In this document: positions 1 through 27,387 of the stretch, piece after piece
Layout: every line of letters starts with the position of its first letter
Numbering within the stretch: position 1 is the first letter of the stretch
Assembly (NCBI RefSeq): GCF_001705235.1
Contig: NZ_MCGV01000001.1
Coordinates: 3,010,181-3,042,180 of the forward strand
DNA length: 32,000 nucleotides
Direction of reading: 5' to 3'
Origin: Clostridium pasteurianum
Lineage (GTDB): Bacteria > Bacillota > Clostridia > Clostridiales > Clostridiaceae
Made by a program: the position numbers and the translations under genes
Notes under the pieces: model-generated
What the model was told of the DNA's origin: nothing
Seen by the model: only the letters and a program-made list of their open reading frames with translations
Databases searched by the model: none

Positions 1-250
1 TATGACCATTTTTATAATACAATTATATCATTTATGTAATCGCTAATCATATATATTTTTTAAGCTGAACGTTTGAAAATAAATCCGTTTATGGTGCAGA
101 ACAACTAAATGAAGCAACTGCTGAATTAAGAATGGGGTCTTTTGTAATCTAACGAGACGAAAAAGGTTGTAATCTGCTAAAGCCCGAACGTCATATATGA
201 AAGTATCCTTCTGCTGACGCTACGGAAAATTTAAAATTTGAAATTAGAGG

Positions 251-487
251 CTTTCCATAGTGAAATGGAGGAAAGGTGTCCTTGTTTTTATTTTAAGGAA
301 AGGAATAGTATTGGGGGAACGGTTTAAATAAAATTCAATAAGTCTTGCCGCAAATTATAAAAAAACTTAGAAATTTTAATTTGTTTGAGCTTTTTTTCAG
401 CGATTTATTAAAATTTATTAGTTCTTTTATAATTTGTAGCTTAGACTTATGAGTTTTATTTAATGTTTCCTAAATACTACTCCTTCC
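251..487 (+). repeat. Long-hairpin repeat element, copy 1 (stem-loop 251-275, hairpin 297-487)
   Basis: CTTTCCATAGTGAAATGGAGGAAAG at 251-275 is shared with the copies at 5094 and 21966. Arms 297-380 and 405-487 are near-complementary. The apical loop TTGTTTGAGC-N7-CAGCGATTTAT is shared with copies 2 and 3. Upstream GGAAAATTTAAA (224-235) also occurs before copy 4, so the left boundary may be near 223. Confidence 0.8.
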
Positions 488-520
488 CTAATATGCTATA
501 CTAGAAATGAGGTGATAGCA

Positions 521-4526: not shown

Positions 4527-4994
4527 TTGAGTTACTATGCTGATGAAAAAAATTTTGAAATAAAATCACCTGTTGATGGAGCAATACTTGATATTTCTAA
4601 AGTCGATGATTATGTATTTTCCAAAAAACTTGCAGGAGATGGAGTTGCTGTAAGATTTAAGACAAATAAAATAACTTCACCTATCAATGGAATTGTGAAG
4701 TTGGTATTATGCACAAAAAACGGAGTAGGAATAGAAAGTGAGAATGGGATTGAGGTATTACTACATATAAATGTTGAAAAAGTAGCTAATAAAAAAGGAT
4801 TTTGTTTAAAGGTTAACGAAGGTGATACGGTAAATATTGGCGATGATATTCTTTGCATAGATGACAGTGTTCTTAAAAATGAGGAATTGACATTATGCGT
4901 AATAGTTACCAATATGAATGATGTTAAAGAAATACACAAAAATTCTGATCACATGGTTTCAAGGGAAGAACCTTTGTTTGCTGTAAGCATATAA
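4527..4994 (+). CDS. Stand-alone PTS EIIA(Glc)-like domain protein with an atypical active site
   Basis: Aligns by eye to E. coli Crr (GDGVAV, GIESENGIEVLLH, KGF, GD.V..GD). The phospho-His equivalent (H80) is present, but the second catalytic His is Asn (TKNG). TTG start 6 nt after AGGGGGGGA. Confidence 0.7.
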   Translation: MSYYADEKNFEIKSPVDGAILDISKVDDYVFSKKLAGDGVAVRFKTNKITSPINGIVKLVLCTKNGVGIESENGIEVLLHINVEKVANKKGFCLKVNEGDTVNIGDDILCIDDSVLKNEELTLCVIVTNMNDVKEIHKNSDHMVSREEPLFAVSI

Positions 4995-5093: not shown

Positions 5094-5331
5094 CTTTCCG
5101 TAGTGAAACGGAGAAAAGGTTTCGTTGTTTTTATTCTAAATGAAGTAACAGTATTTTGGCAACGATTTAAATAAAACTTAATAAGTCTTGCTTCAAATTA
5201 CAAAAGGACTTAGAAATTTTAATTTGTCTGAGCATCTTTTCAGCGAGTTATCAAAATTTCCTAGTCCTTTTATAATTTGGAGCTTAGACTTATGAGTTTT
5301 ATTTAATGTTGCCAAAATACTGTTACTTCAT
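5094..5331 (+). repeat. Long-hairpin repeat element, copy 2 (stem-loop 5094-5118, hairpin 5140-5331)
   Basis: CTTTCCGTAGTGAAACGGAGAAAAG, then a TGTTTTTAT spacer. The basal 24 bp ATGAAGTAACAGTATTTTGGCAAC / GTTGCCAAAATACTGTTACTTCAT pair perfectly. The central part closely resembles copy 1 by eye. The right arm contains the telA stop codon. Confidence 0.85.
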
Positions 5332-6471
5332 CTTTTTCAAGTATTCAACTTTTAAATTATTAAGTTTATTCATACCCTCATCACGGAGCTTTTTATTTTC
5401 TTCTTCTATTCTTTCTGTCTCATTAATTCCATCCATTATTATTTTCCATGTTTCTTCAAGTGTCTCGATTTTTATTGATGGAGAACCGGTTATTTTTGCT
5501 ATATCAATACTTTGGTCTTTTATATTATTGGCATTTTTTAAAAGAAGTTCATTTGTAGCCTTATCTAAAGCTTCCATGGATTTTGCTACTGATTTTTGTC
5601 TTCTTAAAGTTATAGCCTGTATTAGACCATTTTTAAATACTGGTAGAGTTACTATAAAAGCAGAATGAATTTTACCTATCAGTTTATAGTTACCTTTCTG
5701 TATTGTTCGTATTTGAGGAGCTGTTTGCATAGAAACCATTTTTGCCATTTCAAGATCATAAAGTCTTTGTTTTAACATTTCAAGTGAATACTGCACTTCT
5801 TGAAGTTTAAGGGCATCTTCTTGAAGACCACTTTCTGCCTTTTCAGTCCAATAAGGTATGTCTTCACGTTCTATTTCTTGTATTGTAAGTTCACAGGCAG
5901 CAGAATATTTTTCAAGCTCTATGTAATAATCAAAATTTTGAGCAAACATTTCTTCAAGCATTTTGTTAGTATCCATTATTTCTGTTTTGTAGGAGCTTAT
6001 CCTAGAATAGATTCTGTCTATTTCAGTTCCAAAGCTCTGATATTTCTTTAAAATGCTCTGAACTGTTTTTTTGCCGGAATTAAATATTTTTGAAAAAAAT
6101 CCTTCTGGTTTTTCCTCAAGTTCCTGCTTATCAAATTTGCTCATTATTATAGTCAATTCCTTTAAAAGAGCACTGGAGTTTTCAACACTACTTAGCTTCA
6201 TTGTTTTTAATATTCTATCTGAAAACTGTGAAATTTGTTCAGCAGGAGCATTACCAAATTGCATTATTGAATTTATATCCATTACGTTCAGATTCTTTGA
6301 AATTTCAATTACTTCTGGAGAGTTTTTTAGTTTTTCATTTATTTGTTTTATTTTATCTTCTATTTCTTTATCTGTGTCGGAAATGTTATTATTGTCATTA
6401 TTAGAGATATCATTTTTTATGACTGTGTTATCTTCTTTATCATTATTAAAATTAAATCTCATTAAAGTCAT
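5323..6471 (-). CDS. telA: TelA / toxic anion resistance family protein (YceH-like)
   Basis: About 380 aa, coiled-coil rich, with the MQFGNAPAEQISQFSDRIL region typical of TelA (PF05816) as I recall it. Its ATG overlaps the upstream TGA (ATGA), indicating translational coupling. An alternative start is the ATG at 6462. Confidence 0.75.
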   Translation of the reverse strand: MTLMRFNFNNDKEDNTVIKNDISNNDNNNISDTDKEIEDKIKQINEKLKNSPEVIEISKNLNVMDINSIMQFGNAPAEQISQFSDRILKTMKLSSVENSSALLKELTIIMSKFDKQELEEKPEGFFSKIFNSGKKTVQSILKKYQSFGTEIDRIYSRISSYKTEIMDTNKMLEEMFAQNFDYYIELEKYSAACELTIQEIEREDIPYWTEKAESGLQEDALKLQEVQYSLEMLKQRLYDLEMAKMVSMQTAPQIRTIQKGNYKLIGKIHSAFIVTLPVFKNGLIQAITLRRQKSVAKSMEALDKATNELLLKNANNIKDQSIDIAKITGSPSIKIETLEETWKIIMDGINETERIEEENKKLRDEGMNKLNNLKVEYLKKMK

Positions 6472-9490: not shown

Positions 9491-9724
9491 AAAATTCCGT
9501 AGGTACGGAGGAATTTTTACATTGCTTTACTTCTTAAGCCAAATAACAATGATGAAGGAATGATTTAAAAGAATTCTAATAAAGCTTGGTAAAAAAATCA
9601 TAAAATACTTAGTGTTTTTAATTTGTTTGAGCTTTTTCTCAGCGAGTTATTAAAAACACTTAGGATTTTATGATTTTTTTGACTTAGCTTTATAGAATTC
9701 TTTTAATGTTCCTTCATCATTGTT
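9491..9724 (+). repeat. Long-hairpin repeat element, copy 3 (stem-loop 9491-9517, hairpin 9546-9724)
   Basis: Divergent stem-loop AAAATTCCGTAGGTACGGAGGAATTTT. Arms AACAATGATGAAGGAA... / ...TTCCTTCATCATTGTT pair over about 78 nt. The apical loop TTGTTTGAGC-N7-CAGCGAGTTAT matches copies 1 and 2. Upstream CGGAAAATCTGAAATTA (9421-9437) resembles the copy 1 flank. Confidence 0.8.
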
Positions 9725-10340
9725 ACTCGGCTTTTTCAACTAGTTTTGAAAAATATCTTTTTGGTATATAGCCTTGTTTAATTCCCTCCACAACCAATAA
9801 ATAGGTAGCTGTAGTATCAAATCTAGCATCATGAAAGTTTCCGTCTTCTTCAAAGTACTTTTGGCTCATTCTGTTAATATAAGATTCATCTATGCCTAAA
9901 AAGTTTACTACTTCTTCCAGCCTCGGCTTTTTATAATTGCCATGGTTATTTAGAATTTTACATATACCTTTGTAATAATTCATAGTACAAAAAATGTGTT
10001 TTGGATTAAAAGGTTTCTTACATTGAAATAATTCATGTTTCATGAACTTTAAATCAAAATTAACATTATGCCCTATAAAGATATCTGCATTTAGAAAATC
10101 AGGAAGCAAATTTTCTAAACTGTCCTCAAAAGATTTTCCACTACTTAGCTTGTACAAATCATCTACGCTAAAACCGTGAACTTTTTCTGCACTTGGCTCT
10201 ATATAATCAACTGAAAAGAAAAAATTTTCACCAATTGTTTTATTCGGTTTTACATCTGTATCAACAAGGATATAACTTAGCTGACAAATGCTTCCGGGCA
10301 TTAATCCAGTTGTTTCCGTGTCAAAAAATATCATTTTCAT
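9723..10340 (-). CDS. DEDDh 3'-5' exonuclease (DnaQ/PolC-exonuclease-like), stand-alone
   Basis: FFDTETTGL (Exo I), HNVNFDLKF (Exo II), HDARFDT (Exo III, His type). ATG lies 9 nt after AGGAGAC. Confidence 0.85.
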   Translation of the reverse strand: MKMIFFDTETTGLMPGSICQLSYILVDTDVKPNKTIGENFFFSVDYIEPSAEKVHGFSVDDLYKLSSGKSFEDSLENLLPDFLNADIFIGHNVNFDLKFMKHELFQCKKPFNPKHIFCTMNYYKGICKILNNHGNYKKPRLEEVVNFLGIDESYINRMSQKYFEEDGNFHDARFDTTATYLLVVEGIKQGYIPKRYFSKLVEKAE

Positions 10341-10452: not shown

Positions 10453-10458
10453 AATTAT

Positions 10459-10748
10459 TAAGTGCATTGATGGGAAGAGTAGTAAATGGAAGCAGTTAAA
10501 GAGAGCTGATGCTTGGTGAGATTCAGCGGTGCTAAGGTTTATGAACATGGCCCCGGAGCAGAATATCTGAAGTTTAGTAGGGTATTACGTTAGCAGACGT
10601 TACACTGCAGGGTGATAAATAATTTTAAGTTAGGAGTCACTTGTTGAGATTTTCATTGTGAGATGAAAATGAATTAGAGTGGTAGAGCGAAATTACGCCT
10701 CTAAATAAGAGTTTATACTTTTATTTAGAGGCTTTTTTATTTAATAAA
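10459..10748 (+). promoter_or_regulatory. T-box riboswitch leader, Met specifier
   Basis: Stem I start GATGGGAAGAGTAG, AGAGAG and GGTGAGA motifs, ATG codons at 10541 and 10546 in the specifier region. T-box sequence AATTAGAGTGGTAGAGCGA (10672-10690). Terminator GCCTCTAAATAAG...TTATTTAGAGGC followed by TTTTTT (10697-10748). Confidence 0.85.
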
Positions 10749-10761
10749 AGGAGTGATTTTA

Positions 10762-12702
10762 ATGGCAGAGAAGAAAAAATTCTATATTACAACGCCTATA
10801 TATTATCCATCTGCAAAGCTGCATATAGGAAACACATATACAACAGTTGCAGCAGATGCACTTGTAAGATTTAAAAGACTTCAAGGTTATGATGCTTTTT
10901 TACTTACAGGTACAGATGAACATGGTCAAAAGATTCAAAGAATTGCAGAAGAAAAGGGTATAACACCAAAAGCTTATGTTGATGAAATTGTTGCAGGAAT
11001 AAAAGACTTATGGAAAATGATGAATATAAGTTATGATAAGTTTATAAGAACCACAGATGATTATCATGTAAAAGCTGTGCAAAAGATATTTAAAAAACTT
11101 TATGATCAAGGTGATATTTACAAGGGGCATTATGAAGGATGGTATTGTACACCGTGTGAATCATTTTGGACTGAAACTCAGCTTGTTGATGGAAAATGCC
11201 CAGATTGCGGTAGACCAGTTGAAAAGACAAAAGAAGAAGCATATTTCTTTAAAATGTCAAAATATGCAGATAAGCTTATAAAATATATAGAAGATCATCC
11301 CGATTTCATACAACCTGAATCTAGAAAACATGAAATGCTAAATAATTTCTTAAAACCAGGGCTTCAGGATTTATGTATTTCAAGAACTTCTTTTGACTGG
11401 GGAATTCCAGTTACATTTGATCCAAAGCATGTAATTTATGTTTGGATGGATGCACTTACAAATTATATAACAGCTCTAGGATATGGTAGTGACGATGACA
11501 CTTTATTTAACAATTATTGGCCTTGTGATTTACATCTTGTAGGGAAAGATATAATAAGGTTCCATACAATATACTGGCCAATTATGCTAATGGCCCTTGG
11601 ACTTCCACTTCCTAAACAAATTTTTGGTCATGGCTGGCTTTTAGTTGACGGTGGAAAAATGTCAAAATCTAAAGGGAATGTTGTAGATCCAGTAGTTCTA
11701 ATAAATGAATTTGGAACAGATCCAGTTAGATATTATCTATTACATGAGATACCATTTGGATCTGATGGTTTATATAACAGCGAAATATTCATAAAGAAAA
11801 TAAATTCAGATCTTGCAAATGATCTTGGAAATCTTGTTTCACGAACTATAGCTATGATTGAAAAATACTTTGATGGAGTAATTCAGCCTCCTTGTGAAAA
11901 AGATGATATAGATAATGAACTAATTGATTTGGCAGTAAATCTTCCAGAAGTTTTAGATAAAGACATAAAGGCTCTTAAAATACCAGAAGCATTAGATCAC
12001 ATATGGGATGTTATAAAAAGAGCAAATAAGTATATAGATGAAACAACTCCTTGGATATTAGCTAAAGATGAAAATAAGAAAAAGAGACTTGGAACTGTAC
12101 TTTATAATTTAGTTGAAAGTCTTAGATTTGTAGCAGCTACAGTAACACCATTTTTACCTGATACAGGTGCAAAGATGAAAAAACAGCTTAATATAGAACT
12201 TGATTCATGGGAAAGCTTATCAGCTTTTGATGGAACAAGAGCTGGAATTAAAGTTTGTAAGGGAGAGGTAATATTCCCTAGAATTGATGTTGACAAAAAA
12301 TTAGAAGAGCTTAACAAAATAAAAGAGGAACAATTGAAGGCTAGCAACAAAAATAAAATGACACCTCTTAAACCGGAAATAACTATAGATGATGTTGATA
12401 AATTAGATTTAAGAGTTGTTAAAGTTCTTGAATGTGAATCGGTAAAAAAATCTAAAAAGCTTCTTAAACTTAAAGTTGAATTAGGTGGAGAAGAGAGACA
12501 GGTGTTATCAGGTATATCTCAATTTTATAAGCCAGAAGAATTGGTTGGCAAGAAGGTTGTGCTTGTGGCTAACTTAAAACCTGCAAAACTCATGGGTCAA
12601 CTTTCGCAGGGCATGATACTTGCTGTGGCAACTGATGACGATAGTAAATTGTATACTGTAGAGATACCGCAAGATATGCCTACTGGAAGTATTATAAGAT
12701 AA
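10762..12702 (+). CDS. metG: Methionyl-tRNA synthetase with C-terminal tRNA-binding domain
   Basis: HIGN (HIGH) and KMSKS motifs, zinc knuckle CTPCESF...CPDCGRP, C-terminal Trbp111/EMAP-like LDLRVVKVLECE. ATG lies 8 nt after AAAGGAG. Confidence 0.97.
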   Translation: MAEKKKFYITTPIYYPSAKLHIGNTYTTVAADALVRFKRLQGYDAFLLTGTDEHGQKIQRIAEEKGITPKAYVDEIVAGIKDLWKMMNISYDKFIRTTDDYHVKAVQKIFKKLYDQGDIYKGHYEGWYCTPCESFWTETQLVDGKCPDCGRPVEKTKEEAYFFKMSKYADKLIKYIEDHPDFIQPESRKHEMLNNFLKPGLQDLCISRTSFDWGIPVTFDPKHVIYVWMDALTNYITALGYGSDDDTLFNNYWPCDLHLVGKDIIRFHTIYWPIMLMALGLPLPKQIFGHGWLLVDGGKMSKSKGNVVDPVVLINEFGTDPVRYYLLHEIPFGSDGLYNSEIFIKKINSDLANDLGNLVSRTIAMIEKYFDGVIQPPCEKDDIDNELIDLAVNLPEVLDKDIKALKIPEALDHIWDVIKRANKYIDETTPWILAKDENKKKRLGTVLYNLVESLRFVAATVTPFLPDTGAKMKKQLNIELDSWESLSAFDGTRAGIKVCKGEVIFPRIDVDKKLEELNKIKEEQLKASNKNKMTPLKPEITIDDVDKLDLRVVKVLECESVKKSKKLLKLKVELGGEERQVLSGISQFYKPEELVGKKVVLVANLKPAKLMGQLSQGMILAVATDDDSKLYTVEIPQDMPTGSIIR

Positions 12703-12734
12703 AAAAATAATCCTCACACGAGGATTATTTTTTG
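12701..12734. terminator. Bidirectional intrinsic terminator between metG and csp
   Basis: A-run, ATAATCCTC-ACAC-GAGGATTAT, T-run. Lies between convergent genes. Confidence 0.8.
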
Positions 12735-12759
12735 TTATAATTTAATTTATATGAAAGGT

Positions 12760-12957
12760 TTAATGTTTTACAACATTAACTGCCTGCTCGCCCTTTTGAC
12801 CTTCAGTTAAATCAAATTCAACTTCTTGACCTTCTTCTAAAGTCTTGAATCCATTGTCTTTGATACCTGAATAATGAACGAATACATCGTTACCTTCTTG
12901 GGTAGTGATGAAACCATATCCTTTCTGAGAATTAAACCATTTAACTGTTCCTAACAT
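12760..12957 (-). CDS. Cold-shock protein (CspA family)
   Basis: [17 protein letters not shown] (RNP1) and VFVHYS (RNP2). ATG lies 8 nt after GGAGG. The ORF-track N-terminal extension was discarded. Confidence 0.95.
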
Positions 12958-13252
12958 AAAAAAAACCTCCGTAAATTGAATATAAGATGAATAAATTACC
13001 TTCATCCACTTAATAGTATACCACTAAATCTGCATAATATTCACTGTTTTTGTTTAAATTATTATAATATATAAACAGATGATGATTATTAAAGATAATT
13101 TAAGAAATACTTTATTTTTATAATTACATATATAATTAATGCTAAATTATCGCATATATATAGCTATTTAATAAGGATATAACATAGTGATATAATTTAT
13201 TATAAATAAGATTTTGCTTAGAAAATAATTTTACCATAAAGGAGATTTTAAA

Positions 13253-15411: not shown

Positions 15412-15432
15412 GAGCTTAGGCTCCTTTTTTTT
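15410..15432 (+). terminator. Intrinsic terminator after yabE
   Basis: AGGAGC-TTAG-GCTCCT followed by eight T. Confidence 0.75.
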
Positions 15433-15459
15433 AATGTTACAAAGCATCGTTAATTCACT
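15426..15459 (+). repeat. Solo fragment homologous to the right-arm end of hairpin element copy 4
   Basis: TTTTTTTAATGTTACAAAGCATCGTTAATTCACT versus 22274-22307 TTTTTTTAATGTTACAAATCAATGTTAATTCGCT. The first 18 nt are identical, about 29 of 34 overall. No complementary left arm is nearby. Confidence 0.6.
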
Positions 15460-17011: not shown

Positions 17012-18403
17012 TTGAGTCAGAAAAAGAATTACAGTAGAAGTTTTATAATTCTTCAAGAGAATGAAAAAGGATATGAGATATCTTCTGATAAACTTCCTAC
17101 AGGTTATGCAAAGATAGAAATAAAAAATGGCAAATGCAAGGTATCTTTTTATGTTCAAAATTTAAAGAAGATGTCTAAACCATATAGTATGCTGCTTGTT
17201 TGTGATAAAAAAAATACAAAAAAATTAATTCATTTGGGAAAAATTAATATAGATGAATATGGGAGATCAGAAATAAGCAGAGAATTTGAGGAAAGCGATA
17301 TAGCAGGAAGCGGTATACCTGTAGATAGAGTTGTAGGAGCATCTATTGCACAGGTTATAGAGGATAATATCATTGCTGTTATGAGTGGATTTAATGCTTC
17401 AGATGTATCAGATTCATGGAAAACATATCCTGTGGCTCAAGTAAAAAAGGAAACTGATGAAACAAATAAAGTAAGTGAGAATATAGAACAATCTCATAAG
17501 GATGATATTAGAAAAGACGAGGCTCAGGAAGCAGTATCAAAGAAAAAAGAGAATACAACTAATGTATTTGATGAATATGAAAAGAGAGTACAGGCGAAAG
17601 CAGACAAACAAGATGAAGAGGTAAACAAAGTAAAAGAAGTAAATGCAGTAAAAGAAGTAAAAGAAGTAAAAGAAGTAAATGCAGTAAAAGAAGTAAAATC
17701 AGAGAATACAGAAATTAGTAAAGAAAAGACCAAGGAAAAGACCAAAGAGAGACACCAAGATAAAAGGGACAATGCACAAGAAGATAGTGTGCAGGATAGT
17801 AGCAGCGAAGATGAAAGCAACAATAATGTAGAAGAAACTAGTACAGTAGAGGGAATCAATAAATTAGAAGATAATGATAATACAGATGAAATTAATAAAG
17901 TTAGTGATATAGAAGATAATAATTATGATTCATATCAAAGTGTAAATGAGGATGAAGAAGATTTGAGTGAACTTCCTAAGGGAAGAGTAGGAAAATTCTT
18001 TAGAAGTCTTACTAATGGACTTGAAGATCTAGGAGATGTTTTCCCAGATGTAAAGCGCTGCCAGTGGTATAAAATATCATCTGAATATCCTCAAAACATG
18101 TTTGATTCTCAAAGTTATAATAGATATGCTGTGATATATTACCCAATGTTAATGTATTATCCGTACATCGAAAAATATGGACATTATTTGCTAGGATATA
18201 AGTGTGATAAAAATGACAATATGAAATACATTGTATATGCAGTTCCAGGAACGAAAAAAAGAACAGAGCAGCCATTTGGAGGAAAAACTGGTTTTGTTTC
18301 ATGGATTCCGCTTGTAGATGGTGATGAAAAAGAGGATTCTCTTGGATATTGGCTTATGTTTTATGATTTCAAAAATGCAACTATAGCAGTACCTAAAAGA
18401 TAA
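17012..18403 (+). CDS. Hypothetical protein: N-terminal domain, acidic/Lys-rich low-complexity centre, aromatic-rich C-terminal domain
   Basis: 463-aa ORF. TTG start 9 nt after GGGAGG. Coding-like composition throughout. No family recognised. Confidence 0.7.
   Translation: MSQKKNYSRSFIILQENEKGYEISSDKLPTGYAKIEIKNGKCKVSFYVQNLKKMSKPYSMLLVCDKKNTKKLIHLGKINIDEYGRSEISREFEESDIAGSGIPVDRVVGASIAQVIEDNIIAVMSGFNASDVSDSWKTYPVAQVKKETDETNKVSENIEQSHKDDIRKDEAQEAVSKKKENTTNVFDEYEKRVQAKADKQDEEVNKVKEVNAVKEVKEVKEVNAVKEVKSENTEISKEKTKEKTKERHQDKRDNAQEDSVQDSSSEDESNNNVEETSTVEGINKLEDNDNTDEINKVSDIEDNNYDSYQSVNEDEEDLSELPKGRVGKFFRSLTNGLEDLGDVFPDVKRCQWYKISSEYPQNMFDSQSYNRYAVIYYPMLMYYPYIEKYGHYLLGYKCDKNDNMKYIVYAVPGTKKRTEQPFGGKTGFVSWIPLVDGDEKEDSLGYWLMFYDFKNATIAVPKR
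17621..17701 (+). repeat. In-frame 9-nt tandem repeat (GTAAAAGAA and variants, 9 units)
   Basis: GTAAACAAA GTAAAAGAA GTAAATGCA GTAAAAGAA x3 GTAAATGCA GTAAAAGAA GTAAAATCA encodes VNKVKEVNAVKEVKEVKEVNAVKEVKS. A second short repeat, GAAAAGACCAAG x2, follows at about 17722. Confidence 0.9.
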
Positions 18404-21965: not shown

Positions 21966-22307
21966 CTTTCCATAGTGAAACGGAGGAAAGATGTCCATGT
22001 TTTACTCCAAAAGCGAATTAACATTGATGAAGTAACAATTTAAAAAAATCTAATGAATGTTATCATACAAGAGGCTGGGGCTTGGGTCAAAGACCCATTA
22101 TCCTTCTTAATCTAATATAAGCACTCTCTATATTATGAGAGTGCTTGTTTAGATAGATCTTAAAATATTTATAGATCAAAATTATTAGGCGTAAACATTA
22201 AGATAGCCTATATTTTATAAAGAAGGATAATGGGTCTTTGACCCAAGCCCCAGCTATGATAAGATTTATTAGATTTTTTTAATGTTACAAATCAATGTTA
22301 ATTCGCT
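21966..22307 (+). repeat. Long-hairpin repeat element, copy 4 (stem-loop 21966-21990, hairpin 22012-22307) with a different apical module
   Basis: CTTTCCATAGTGAAACGGAGGAAAG. Basal arms AGCGAATTAACATTGATGAAGTAACAATTTAAAAAAATC / GATTTTTTTAATGTTACAAATCAATGTTAATTCGCT. The apex is replaced by the 22074-22254 element. Confidence 0.8.
22074..22254. repeat. 181-bp element with perfect 35-bp GC-rich terminal inverted repeats, nested in copy 4
   Basis: GCTGGGGCTTGGGTCAAAGACCCATTATCCTTCTT (22074-22108) is the exact reverse complement of 22220-22254. The 111-bp core holds three small hairpins, including AAGCACTCTC-TATATTAT-GAGAGTGCTT. Confidence 0.85.
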
Positions 22308-22802
22308 CTATTTCTCGTAGCTTTCAACTATTTCTCCAAAGAAAAGTGTGTGAAATCTACCATCACTATAAATTTTATCTTTTATGTCTTTATCAATTTT
22401 TGAAAGATCAATATCACTAGAATATACTACTTTGCATTCGTAATAAATTCCACAGTCATCTATAATTGGCGCAGATAATTTTTTTGAGTCTTTCGTTTTT
22501 ATATTGGCTTCTTTAAATTTATTTATGTCCCTTCCTGATTTTGTTCCACAGATTGAAAGTGCTTTTTTCAATTTGTCATTAGTGGGTATGCTTATGGTAA
22601 ATTCTTTTGATTCTTTTATGAAGTCATAAGAATATCTTGAAGTTCTTATTAATGCCATAAATATTGGACGATTCCATTCGTAACCTATGTTGCCCCAGCT
22701 TATAGTCATTGTATTAGTTTTATCACCATTTTTTACAGTTAAAAATGCACCTTGTTTATGAAGATATTCCATAGCCTTATCTAAGTTATTAGTAAAATCC
22801 AT
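22308..22802 (-). CDS. Flavin reductase-like FMN-binding (split-barrel) protein
   Basis: About 160 aa with TISWGNIGYEWNRPIF and an overall pattern resembling the flavin reductase/flavoredoxin family. ATG lies 8 nt after AAGGAGG. Confidence 0.55.
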   Translation of the reverse strand: MDFTNNLDKAMEYLHKQGAFLTVKNGDKTNTMTISWGNIGYEWNRPIFMALIRTSRYSYDFIKESKEFTISIPTNDKLKKALSICGTKSGRDINKFKEANIKTKDSKKLSAPIIDDCGIYYECKVVYSSDIDLSKIDKDIKDKIYSDGRFHTLFFGEIVESYEK

Positions 22803-25507: not shown

Positions 25508-25815
25508 ATTATTTAAATATAAAGCTATAAAATTGCAATGAAGGAAAGAGTAGATTTAACTGAGCTTTCAGAGAGCCGGGCTTTAAGCTGTGAACCGGCA
25601 GCGAGATTAAATTGAAGAACATTCTGGAGTAGTTAACCAAAATCTTTTTGAAAGTAGGCTTAAACGGATGTCCATCGTTAAAGGGAATAGGTATTGATGT
25701 TTTTAGAGAACATTTTGTACTGAATTGAGTTAGCATTTTGCTAAGTAGGGTGGCACCGCGTTATATACAATCGCCCCTATACCAATATTATATTTGGTAT
25801 AGGGGCGATTTTTTA
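25508..25815 (+). promoter_or_regulatory. T-box riboswitch leader, Asn (AAC) specifier
   Basis: Stem I start AATGAAGGAAAGAGTAG, AGAGAG and GTGAACC motifs. Specifier context TTGAAG-AAC-A-TTCTGGAGTA (AAC at 25618-25620). T-box AAGTAGGGTGGCACCGCG (25743-25760). Terminator ATCGCCCCTATACC...GGTATAGGGGCGAT followed by TTTTTT (25769-25815). Confidence 0.85.
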
Positions 25816-25839
25816 TGTAAAAAAATTGGAGGGCTATGT

Positions 25840-27132
25840 ATGAAAAAATTTTATGTCAAAGATGTATTTTCCATGAATGAAGGGGATGAAATAGTACTTA
25901 AAGGATGGGTTCATAAAATTTATGATCTCGGTCATGTTAATTTTATAAGACTAAGAGATAAAACAGGAATTGCTCAGCTAGTAACAACTAAGGAACAATT
26001 AGAAGGTCTTAGAAATGAAACTTGTATAGAAGTTAAGGGAAAACTAAGTAAAAATGAAAAAGCTATTAATGGAATGGAAGTTCAAGTAGAAGATATAAAA
26101 ATTTTAGGAAAAGTTTATTATGATAAATTACCTTTTGATATAAATGGTAAAAAAATAAATGCAGCACTTGAAACTCAACTTGATCATAGAAACATAAGTC
26201 TTAGAAAACCTAATATACTCGCAATTTTCAAAATTCAAGAACAAATTGGAGATTGTTTTAGAGATTTTTTAAGAGAAAATGGCTTTACAGAAATACATAC
26301 ACCTAAAATATTGGCATCAGGAACTGAGGGTGGAAGTGAGCTTTTCACTGTAAATTATTTTGATCATAGAGCATTTTTAGCTCAGAGTCCTCAATTTTAC
26401 AAGCAGATGATGGTTGGAGTTGGATTTGAAAAAGTTTTTGAGGTAGGTCATGCTTATAGAGCAGAGCTTCATAATACTTACAGACATTTAAATGAGTATG
26501 TGAGTCTTGATGCAGAAATGGGCTTTATAGAAGATGAGACTGAAATAATGGATCTTGAAGAAAGATTTATGAACTATTTATTCAAAAAATTAAGAGAGAA
26601 TTGTGCAAGGGAACTTGAAATGTATAATATAACTTTACCCCAAAAAGTTAACATACCAAGGATTCCTCTTTCAGAAGCACAGGAGATTGTTTATAAAGAA
26701 TATGGTAAAAGATCACCTAAGGGAGATTTGAATGCTGAAGGTGAAAGATTGTTTGGAAAGTATATTAAGGAGAAGTATGATAGTGATTTTGCTTATCTTA
26801 CAAAGTATCCTCTTTCAAAAAGGCCTATGTATACAATGCCTGATGATGAAATAGAAGGAGCCTCAAAGAGCTTTGATTTAATATATAAAGGTCTTGAAAT
26901 AACAACAGGTGGTCAAAGAATTCATGATCATGATATGCTTGTAGAAGCTATAAAGAAAAAAGGATTTAAACCAGAAGAGTTTGAATTCTATACGGAAAAC
27001 TTTAGATACGGTATGCCACCTCATGGAGGTTTTGCTATAGGTCTTGAAAGACTTACAATGCAGATATTAGGACTTGAAAATATAAGAGAAGCATCATTAT
27101 TGCCAAGAGATATGAAGAGAATAACACCATAA
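25840..27132 (+). CDS. aspS: Aspartyl-tRNA synthetase, archaeal/short type (likely non-discriminating)
   Basis: About 430 aa. QSPQFYKQ, motif 3 GGFAIGLERL, C-terminal LPRDMKRITP. The ATG at 25840 follows GGAGGG. The ORF-track extension covers the T-box terminator and was discarded. Confidence 0.88.
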   Translation: MKKFYVKDVFSMNEGDEIVLKGWVHKIYDLGHVNFIRLRDKTGIAQLVTTKEQLEGLRNETCIEVKGKLSKNEKAINGMEVQVEDIKILGKVYYDKLPFDINGKKINAALETQLDHRNISLRKPNILAIFKIQEQIGDCFRDFLRENGFTEIHTPKILASGTEGGSELFTVNYFDHRAFLAQSPQFYKQMMVGVGFEKVFEVGHAYRAELHNTYRHLNEYVSLDAEMGFIEDETEIMDLEERFMNYLFKKLRENCARELEMYNITLPQKVNIPRIPLSEAQEIVYKEYGKRSPKGDLNAEGERLFGKYIKEKYDSDFAYLTKYPLSKRPMYTMPDDEIEGASKSFDLIYKGLEITTGGQRIHDHDMLVEAIKKKGFKPEEFEFYTENFRYGMPPHGGFAIGLERLTMQILGLENIREASLLPRDMKRITP

Positions 27133-27387
27133 TTATGTTTGAAAATATTGATAAAAATTTATGGAGCTAACAGATTCTAAGGATTGCTCGTTTATAATTG
27201 TCTACCCATTTAAATGTATCATCCTGATGCTTAAATGGCTTCGCACGTCCTGTGCGAAATTACGCCAATTATAAGTCGCAAATCCTAAGAGTCTGTAAAC
27301 TCCAACATACAATATCAACATTATTCAAACATAATTATTAAGAAAGTTAAGGTTAATGAAAATTTTTTTCCGTTTCACTACAAAAAA
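27130..27387 (-). repeat. Long-hairpin repeat element, copy 5, inverted orientation (stem-loop 27387-27363, hairpin 27337-27130)
   Basis: The minus strand reads TTTTTTGTAGTGAAACGGAAAAAAA, a 13-nt exact match (GTAGTGAAACGGA) to copy 2. The 208-nt hairpin TAATTATGTTTGAA... / ...TTCAAACATAATTA has a branched apex. Its first 3 nt on the plus strand are the aspS stop codon. Confidence 0.7.

Follow-up and report, generated by a model that had tools for sequence, protein, structure and literature searches.

The 32,000-nt stretch of Clostridium pasteurianum DNA analysed here (contig NZ_MCGV01000001.1, positions 3,010,181 to 3,042,180; below, the window) is AT-rich, with a G+C content of 30%, and raises the question of what the long hairpins are that recur between its genes. 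The initial annotation had described five intergenic loci and one fragment, in which a 25-nt stem-loop (S) and a spacer are followed by a long imperfect hairpin (H), and all of them were found where it had placed them. Our analysis indicated, with somewhat better than even confidence, that the loci belong to a mosaic family of non-coding, long-palindrome repeats, which resembles MITEs (miniature transposable elements with inverted repeats) and bacterial interspersed mosaic elements (BIMEs), is placed at stop codons and would function as a 3'-end hairpin. The strongest regularity of all, which the annotation had missed, is that the far end of the hairpin lies on the stop codon of a convergent gene. 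The repeated unit is composite: S and the spacer, a right-arm fragment of a second element (H2), are joined to an imperfect palindrome H of about 190 nt with a defined polarity. The copies are related by common descent, and copies 1 and 2 were 82% identical over 261 nt. The features of the window are listed below.

205-250, plus strand: remnant of the left part of H2 in copy 1 (degenerate inverted S and the box GGAAAATTTAAAAT), aligning with the U module of C. neuense copy L005a and of metagenome contig L037
251-275, plus strand: S stem-loop of copy 1, A type
276-295, plus strand: T-rich spacer of copy 1, conserved with copies 2 and 4
296-489, plus strand: main-type H of copy 1 (nhmmer match 297-488, E = 4e-42; fold -83.7 kcal/mol, z = -9.1)
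5094-5118, plus strand: S stem-loop of copy 2, A type, terminator-like on the minus strand
5119-5139, plus strand: T-rich spacer of copy 2, conserved with copies 1 and 4
5140-5331, plus strand: main-type H of copy 2, with 24-nt arms that are 100% complementary (nhmmer match 5141-5329, E = 4.5e-44)
9491-9517, plus strand: S stem-loop of copy 3, B type with the loop AGGT, terminator-like on both strands
9518-9535, plus strand: spacer between S and H of copy 3, aligning with the B-type spacers of foreign copies
9536-9733, plus strand: main-type H of copy 3, with paired arms (nhmmer match 9538-9731, E = 2.7e-45)
15426-15459, plus strand: solo fragment like the right-arm terminus of copy 4 (88% over 34 nt)
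21966-21990, plus strand: S stem-loop of copy 4, A type, with the intermediate stem CCAT/ACGG
21991-22011, plus strand: spacer between S and H of copy 4, conserved with copies 1 and 2
22012-22307, plus strand: H of copy 4, with a main-type base and an interior replaced by a nested element (17-nt arms 100% complementary; fold -160.9 kcal/mol)
22068-22256, no strand assigned: palindromic G element nested within the copy 4 apex, with the inverted repeat GGCTGGGGCTTGGGTCAAAGACCCATTATCCTTCTT
27130-27338, minus strand: long hairpin H of copy 5, folding as one hairpin, whose terminus includes the stop codon of AspRS(Asn) (27130-27132)
27156-27309, minus strand: interior of copy 5, a TwoAYGGAY-like core of two hairpins with the loops CAGGAC and CAGGAU
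27363-27387, minus strand: degenerate S stem-loop of copy 5, TTTTTTGTAGTGAAACGGAAAAAAA, with 2 mismatches to the core

The whole window held no further long hairpins. The motif CTTTCCRTAGTGAAAYGGAGRAAAG was shared by the S of copies 1, 2 and 4, and divergent versions were present in copies 3 and 5, as the annotation had stated. The long hairpins likewise occupied the reported spans, except that the pairing of copy 3 extended slightly further (9536-9733 instead of 9546-9724). The solo fragment was located after the terminator of a 3D-domain gene.

Stop codons and copies in other genomes

For each copy, we sought a convergent open reading frame (ORF) ending near the right terminus of H. The termini of H form the pair GCGAAGTAACAATG...CATTGTTACTTCGC, and the right terminus lay on or within a few nt of a convergent stop codon in four of the five window copies and in almost all foreign copies. 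In copies 2, 3 and 5 the stop codon was inside the terminal stem. The right terminus of copy 2, CTGTTACTTCAT, holds the stop (5323-5325) and the last two codons of TelA (5323-6471, minus strand), and that of copy 3 overlaps the stop (9723-9725) and last codons of an exonuclease gene of the RNase_T family (9723-10340, minus strand). The right terminus of copy 4 was matched by nhmmer at 22261-22305, and its right end adjoins the stop of a flavin-reductase gene (22308-22310), which lies one base beyond. The exceptions without a convergent gene were copy 1, the sole such copy in the window, whose right end meets the promoter region of UDG, and a C. guangxiense copy (L041 7702-7928).

Read in the sense of the gene, the terminus is GCG AAG TAA C, and this TAA was the stop codon in many copies. 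The stop was supplied at one fixed place in the terminus: as G[TTA]C in L030, L034, L035 and L028, as G[CTA]C in L039 and as G[TCA]C at the start of L028. Because GCGAAGTAA of the element stands at the gene ends, two unrelated genes both end in Ala-Lys-stop. In four cases (copy 4, the TelA site of L039, L005b and L044 573) the gene had its own stop, AAATAG or AAATAA, and the full terminus followed 0-1 nt on. In the short copy L005c, a 454-codon ORF reads 12 codons into the arm. Whether or not the element is present, the C-terminus of TelA is equally long (EYLKKMK, EYMKKIK or EYIKTIK, each followed by the stop), and therefore the gene was not truncated by it. The terminus motif GAAGTAACARTG occurred only at H termini among the loci examined and had no match in plasmids or phages.

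The family was searched by BLAST, by a metagenome pattern scan and with an nhmmer profile of main-type H, the profile covering about 123 kb of positive genomes in total. The contigs are labelled as follows: L005, L030 and L044 are from C. neuense, L041 from C. guangxiense and L043 from C. felsineum; L039 is a JGI contig, L034-L038 are metagenome contigs, L028 and L042 are Logan contigs, and L029 is GCA_000785855. Further copies with a clear orientation were found in relatives:

L030 11125-11313, L005 7581-7771, L044 672-831 and L044 11302-11484: main-type H, C. neuense
L041 7371-7558 and 7702-7928: main-type H, C. guangxiense
L039 11430-11620: main-type H, JGI contig
L034-L038: main-type H, metagenome contigs

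Wider spans for the C. neuense copies are L030 11125-11372, L005 7532-7778, and L044 573-903 and 11299-11587. Across species, the nhmmer E-values ranged from 1e-42 to 1e-51. At least 14 main-type copies were present in the about 123 kb, a density of about one copy per 6-9 kb; the 46 kb covered of L029, L042 and C. felsineum L043 yielded no main-type H. The family is restricted to part of Clostridium sensu stricto (the window species, C. neuense, C. guangxiense and relatives), and C. felsineum carries the subtype of copy 5: copy 5 shares 80.6% identity, over 201 nt, with an element of C. felsineum that overlaps the thiI stop. In one scan of a genome collection, the pattern TTTCCRTAGTGAAAYGGAG, which was too narrow, gave 26 matches against about 17 estimated by chance, and the sole plausible one was in C. 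neuense. Searches of plasmid, phage and viral collections returned nothing similar to the elements.

Filled and empty sites were observed at orthologous gene ends. By identity of TelA, the relatives of the window are L028 (94%), L042 (80%), L029 (77%) and the C. neuense / C. guangxiense group (72-74%); AspRS(Asn) of the window is 89% identical to its C. felsineum counterpart. The spacer between TelA and the phosphotransferase system (PTS) EIIA gene was 328 nt in the window, with the element, compared with 44 nt in L042 and 64 nt in L029, in which the element was absent and an ordinary bidirectional terminator was present. These two empty sites belong to genomes closer to the window than C. neuense, whose site is filled. 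The TelA-site element of the C. neuense group was 82% identical to window copy 3 compared with 75% to the orthologous copy 2. Contig L028 ends inside the TelA-site hairpin, and the visible part is like copy 4 and carries a G-type motif. At copy 1, comparison with L029 allowed the right boundary alone to be fixed, at about 490, with homology resuming at 491; the segments upstream of S recurred nowhere else among the loci examined. The occupant of the spacer between aspS and gatC differs: in the window it is copy 5 with its TwoAYGGAY-like H, in C. neuense a main-type H and in C. felsineum a six-unit tandem array; homology between the species ends exactly at the aspS stop codon. The 3' end of thiI is filled in C. 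felsineum, with a copy-5-like hairpin on the stop, and empty in C. neuense.

We also observed that both ends of L028 (1-35 and 3222-3329) lie inside hairpin arms, at the stops of adh_short and TelA, and the H-type repeats seem to break short-read assemblies.

Pairing and composition of the elements

H is 190-300 nt long and palindromic over its whole length. Arm pairs were detected in copies 1-4, the complement strand of copy 1 folded at z = -11.0, and the fold energies of the other copies ranged from -74 to -161 kcal/mol. To an alignment of ten copies with 79 predicted pairs, we applied a covariation count: 95.3% of the cells were paired, and both sides had changed in 36 of the 79 pairs. Shuffled controls had a mean of 18.9 double-changed pairs, with 0 of 500 reaching 36, and slid controls gave 4-10. 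Among the paired cells, 91% were Watson-Crick. On the S-to-H strand, the wobble cells comprised 28 G·T and 14 A·C, and the arm alignments gave 33 and 21. An assignment of the functional strand from these wobble pairs was rejected, because the signal was too weak and the copies are not independent.

Several asymmetries of the palindrome were conserved: a T·T mismatch within CTTAG/CTTAG in all ten aligned copies, a bulge accompanied by G·T at CTTGG/CCTTAG, a G·U at alignment columns 68/164 and two extra bases ahead of TTTAAA in the left arm. The non-palindromic apex TGTYTGAGC...(T/C)AGCGAGTTATTG was conserved as well, and the longer form TTGTYTGAGC-N7-CAGCGAKTTAT, noted before in copies 1-3, was also seen in other species. 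The nhmmer scores of the two strands differed strongly (172 against 57 bits, for example), and therefore H has a polarity. The TelA-site copy is common to C. neuense and L039; 8 nt were lost in C. neuense, so that TelA ends on the TAA of the element. Relative to L039, the opposite arm of the C. neuense copy has changed from GC to AA, which restores the pairing and points to a compensatory change after the insertion. Short forms of H, 70-100 nt long with the apex deleted, were observed at L039 11121-11200, L005 5810-5912 and L041 11135-11227; long palindromes are expected to yield such products by deletion.

The statement that no coding sequence explains the elements held, as the frames after GGAGG differ between copies, and the substitutions of two open copies, counted by eye, were about even over the codon positions. 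A small ORF after the GGAGG of S was rejected: two B-type copies have a 44-47-codon frame, but their differences were not concentrated at third positions. Mechanical ORFs that overlap elements, or real genes on the opposite strand, such as 5306-5668 (plus strand) and 4610-4939 (minus strand), are almost certainly not genes.

For S, the core CCRTAGTGAAAYGGA had 4 matches with up to 2 mismatches compared with 0.09 expected, and 0 of 100 shuffles reached 4. The stem covariation first proposed, CCAT/ATGG against CCGT/ACGG, is real, but copy 4 and one C. neuense copy have the intermediate CCAT/ACGG; better supported was covariation in the outer A/T stem (CTTT/AAAG, ATTTT/AAAAT, TTTACC/GGTAAA, AAAATT/AATTTT). 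Two sub-types of S were distinguished, the A type with the loop AGTGAAA and the B type with the loop AGGYA, and the B-type S of copy 3 was identical in C. neuense, C. guangxiense and metagenome copies. A terminator scan flagged the S of copy 2 on the minus strand and that of copy 3 on either strand, leaving copies 1, 4 and 5 unflagged, so that S is predicted by the scan to be weakly terminator-like in some copies only. In or before S, the promoter scan gave hits at shuffle level and only weak, non-conserved hexamers.

The modular make-up of the loci was supported, with one correction: the 25-nt stem-loop is not an independent module. Upstream of S, several copies have a module that is an inverted S (GATTTTTCTCCGCTAACGCTGGGAAAAATC, compared with the reverse complement of S, GATTTTCCTCCGTTTCACTATGGAAAATC). 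In a complete H2 of C. neuense (L005 2396-2576), S and this module, called U in L005a, base-pair within a single hairpin about 180 nt long. The fold energy of this H2, which adjoins the stop codon of uvrB, was -78 kcal/mol (z = -11), and the repeats that close it, AGAGTAGAGAGTAGAGTG and CACTCTACTCTTTACTCT, are heptad-like (AGAGTAG / AGAGTAC). A second complete H2 was found in metagenome contig L037 (3545-3745). S pairs inside the complete H2, and therefore S and the spacer are a right-arm fragment of it. Fused to H, this fragment was amplified together with it, in the two sub-types.

The apices of copies 4 and 5 had been called unrelated on a related base. That of copy 4 is a nested element of a third repeat family, the G module, whose GC-rich hairpin, for example TGGGC-N3-5-GCCCA, precedes AACCYC. 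The G-type hairpin motif was also found in L037 (about 1700-1790), L041, L044 (about 590-670) and L028; six tandem G units of about 100 nt form the array between aspS and gatC of C. felsineum (L043 11294-11865), and other H copies carry the module as an insertion in their right arm. The apex of copy 5 matched TwoAYGGAY (RF01731) over model positions 1-168 of 168, below threshold at 37.2 bits with a gathering score of 43 (E = 0.014 for the window and 1.9e-4 locally). Its apical loops, CAGGAY, are one base short of AYGGAY, and the long closing stem is present. Copies 1-4 had no match to this model, even in a 301-nt search, and the C. felsineum homologue of copy 5 had none at E up to 1 in a scan of L043 and L044. 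Gut-metagenome seed sequences of TwoAYGGAY form hairpins of about 300 nt that contain the U·U mismatch in CUUAG/CUUAG; near at least one of them lies a convergent stop. The discoverers of the motif judged it a probable RNA of unknown function (PMC2864571), with a P1 stem that is "often very large" (supplement of PMC2864571).

Among the neighbouring features, two T-box leaders scored above the Rfam gathering threshold, at 10458-10705 upstream of the MetRS gene (10753-12702) and at 25529-25781 upstream of AspRS(Asn). The AspRS(Asn) ORF (25738-27132) probably has a later true start, because homologues have 430 aa. A 9-nt tandem repeat (GTAAAAGAA and variants) lies at 17597-17711 inside the ORF 17012-18403, which has no Pfam match. 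The cspA thermoregulator model matched 12701-13028 on the minus strand below threshold, at 30.8 bits with a gathering score of 78; the match overlaps the ORF 12760-13005 (minus strand), at whose position L029 and L030 carry a cold-shock (CSD) gene.

Explanations for the repeat family

The repeat family favoured above would have spread in the form of DNA, either through recombination or through an enzyme that was not found here, and would persist at gene ends where insertions are tolerated. Transcribed as the 3' untranslated region (UTR) of a gene or by read-through from the opposite side, H would form a helix of about 85 bp. This helix may block or process transcripts between convergent genes, with RNase III as the expected nuclease by analogy with Correia and enterobacterial repetitive intergenic consensus (ERIC) elements; on the same analogy, H is probably a 3'-end hairpin or a transcription barrier. 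A terminating ribosome would melt the base of the hairpin, and since this base overlaps the stop codon, H could couple folding to translation termination.

Several observations weigh against such a family. The stop was in phase in seven independent cases, four of them with the gene's own stop 0-1 nt away, which tolerance alone is insufficient to explain. Along the entire hairpin the species share about 80% identity, and bulges and mismatches are invariant; this exceeds what a decaying selfish repeat would show and suggests constraint. No target-site duplication was recognisable, the spacers of filled and empty TelA sites being unalignable and the left boundary of S plus H only approximate. No transposase or recombinase partner was found: the domains of the window ORFs scanned included no transposase, as the initial annotation had also noted, and no integrase, REP-associated tyrosine transposase (RAYT) or TnpA. 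Finally, S is a weak terminator, flagged in just two of the five window copies. Two rivals, a structured RNA and a single-stranded-DNA recombination site, are kept alive by the conservation along the full hairpin, the invariance of the mismatches and the phase of the stop codon.

According to the first, which we consider unlikely, the H elements, including copy 5, are functional structured RNAs that act in cis on the termination, stability or translation of the neighbouring gene, and the copies arose by repeated recruitment. Transcription would run from S to H, convergent with the neighbour and ending on its stop, or H would be the 3' UTR of the neighbour. The strong covariation along the entire helix would be expected of such an RNA, as would the invariant T·T and G·U positions, the non-palindromic apex conserved across species and the identity of about 80% between species whose flanking spacers do not align. 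The coupling to the stop codon is tight, copy 5 spans the whole TwoAYGGAY model on the S-to-H strand, a motif judged a probable RNA (PMC2864571), and G·T pairs are double the A·C pairs on that strand. This G·T excess is small, however; it comes from non-independent copies, and the strand signals of S in copies 4 and 5 contradict each other. Pairing that is 91% Watson-Crick with few wobbles is more typical of DNA palindromes, no conserved promoter lies upstream of S, and a convergent gene is missing at copy 1 and at L041 7702-7928. What characterises repeats is seen as well: orthologous sites that are empty, copies that are truncated, nested insertions and head-to-head pairs.

The second rival, which we hold to be quite improbable, makes H a single-stranded-DNA hairpin site of a recombinase or HUH/Y1 enzyme, comparable with attC, with sites of the repetitive extragenic palindromic (REP)-RAYT type or with IS200/IS605 palindrome-associated transposable elements (PATEs), which is inserted or exchanged at gene 3' ends when folded. 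Near-pure Watson-Crick pairing suits a DNA hairpin, and the defined polarity with conserved extrahelical or mismatched bases, together with a position at the 3' end of an ORF overlapping the stop, recalls many attC sites. The same gene end has different occupants in different species, and other hairpin elements insert into H. The terminal pair AAGTAAC/GTTACTT loosely resembles the attC core sites RYYYAAC/GTTRRRY, but by inspection each half breaks the consensus at two positions. H is also 190-300 nt long instead of the 57-141 nt of attC, the flanking housekeeping genes keep a conserved order without cassette arrays, the window has no integrase, RAYT or TnpA, and RSB, the defining site of ssoA origins, is not present.

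Little probability attaches to a further proposal, in which the H elements and the TwoAYGGAY motif would be substrates of some unnamed machinery that installs or exchanges long hairpins exactly at stop codons, the folded form being read via the CTTAG/CTTAG T·T mismatches and folding being coupled to translation termination. That the similarities reflect independently evolved ordinary terminators, or a local duplication, as the initial annotation had allowed, or an assembly artefact, has a negligible probability and is refuted: hairpins do stand between genes where terminators are expected and S is weakly terminator-like, but copies 1 and 2 are 82% identical, the nhmmer matches across species are highly significant with a clear orientation, and copies flank unrelated genes at non-orthologous loci in several genomes.

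If the density of the repeat family holds genome-wide, hundreds of helices of about 85 bp would lie on gene ends. In annotation, such repeats give spurious ORFs and assembly breaks, as in L028, which begins and ends in one. The elements are relevant to 3'-end formation and mRNA stability in solvent-producing clostridia and to genome stability, because long palindromes are SbcCD substrates; the fixed phase of terminus and stop and the in-place compensation make them a natural system for long-palindrome maintenance. The orphan TwoAYGGAY motif gains a context as a multi-copy long-hairpin element by stop codons, which makes its function easier to test.

Comparison with known repeats and sites

Like MITEs, the elements are short and non-coding with terminal inverted repeats, and they occur in many dispersed copies with filled and empty sites. 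ERIC elements are about 127 bp long, enterobacterial and duplicate a TA target; they lie near or overlap stop codons in a preferred orientation and are co-transcribed, forming an RNA hairpin. H resembles them in being a whole-length imperfect palindrome that is non-coding, dispersed, conserved between species and present in internal indel variants, and in that ERIC too often adjoins or overlaps stop codons. Unlike ERIC, the elements described here are 190-300 nt long, AT-rich and clostridial, show no sequence relation to it and are joined to a fragment of a second element. These ERIC or intergenic repeat unit (IRU) elements of Enterobacteriaceae were reportedly treated by Hulton in 1991 and by De Gregorio et al. 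in 2005.

The pneumococcal BOX and the E. coli BIME are mosaic repeats, intergenic and often at gene 3' ends, and we know of no dedicated transposase for BOX. They share with our elements a modular mosaic of several repeats that jointly form hairpins, and BOX occurs in Firmicutes; the module sequences and sizes are unrelated, and only the nested G module is REP-like here. The Correia element of Neisseria and the bcr1 MITE of Bacillus cereus have target duplications (TA and TTTAT, respectively), defined terminal repeats and candidate transposase families; both are co-transcribed with adjacent genes, and their RNA hairpins are processed, by RNase III for Correia, and change the mRNA level. They are likewise small non-coding inverted-repeat elements, but their terminal repeats, target duplication and transposase families are not established for H.

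REP, attC and ssoA were rejected as identities. A REP unit measures 20-40 nt and is a GC-rich palindrome tagged with GTAG or CGTC (PMC3733652); an identity with RAYT-associated REP or BIME was dismissed because H is at least 190 nt long and AT-rich, so that both size and tag are wrong, and the GTAG contained in S lies inside the stem-loop, not as a 5' tag. The integron attC site is similarly an imperfect palindrome directly after an ORF, often holding the stop, with a polarity from unpaired bases, but H differs from it in core sites, length and context, with no integrase or cassette arrays and with gene order kept. The ssoA origin has the recombination site B (RSB) TTATGCCGAGAAAATTT in its stem and the conserved sequence CS-6, TAGCGT, in its loop (PMC4598088); RSB had 0 matches with up to 3 mismatches, and the apex of H has just (T/C)AGCGAG, so this origin was rejected. 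PATEs derived from IS200/IS605 carry subterminal hairpins that a Y1 TnpA recognises, and insert 3' of a fixed tetra- or pentanucleotide; TTAC is present in the terminus GTTAC, by inspection on the wrong side for IS608-type insertion. Group II intron domain V and a mimic of the 16S anti-Shine-Dalgarno sequence were dropped on sequence inspection.

At gathering thresholds, Rfam matched just the two T-boxes over the window, and literature searches on clostridial MITE- or REP-like repeats and on the species names C. neuense and C. guangxiense yielded no account of an element of this sort. The earlier statement that the elements match no named RNA or repeat therefore stood for copies 1-4, which no Rfam family covers, and had to be amended for copy 5, the one copy that touches TwoAYGGAY. 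The interior of copy 5 aligns over the whole length of that model, its closing stem being long and its two apical hairpins bearing GGAY loops, and TwoAYGGAY, like H, is multi-copy. Copy 5 differs from it in scoring below the gathering threshold and in its CAGGAY loops, and copies 1-4 have other apices. Collectively, these comparisons identify H as a new family within a kind of repeat already known in bacteria, to which ERIC, BOX and Correia-like elements also belong.

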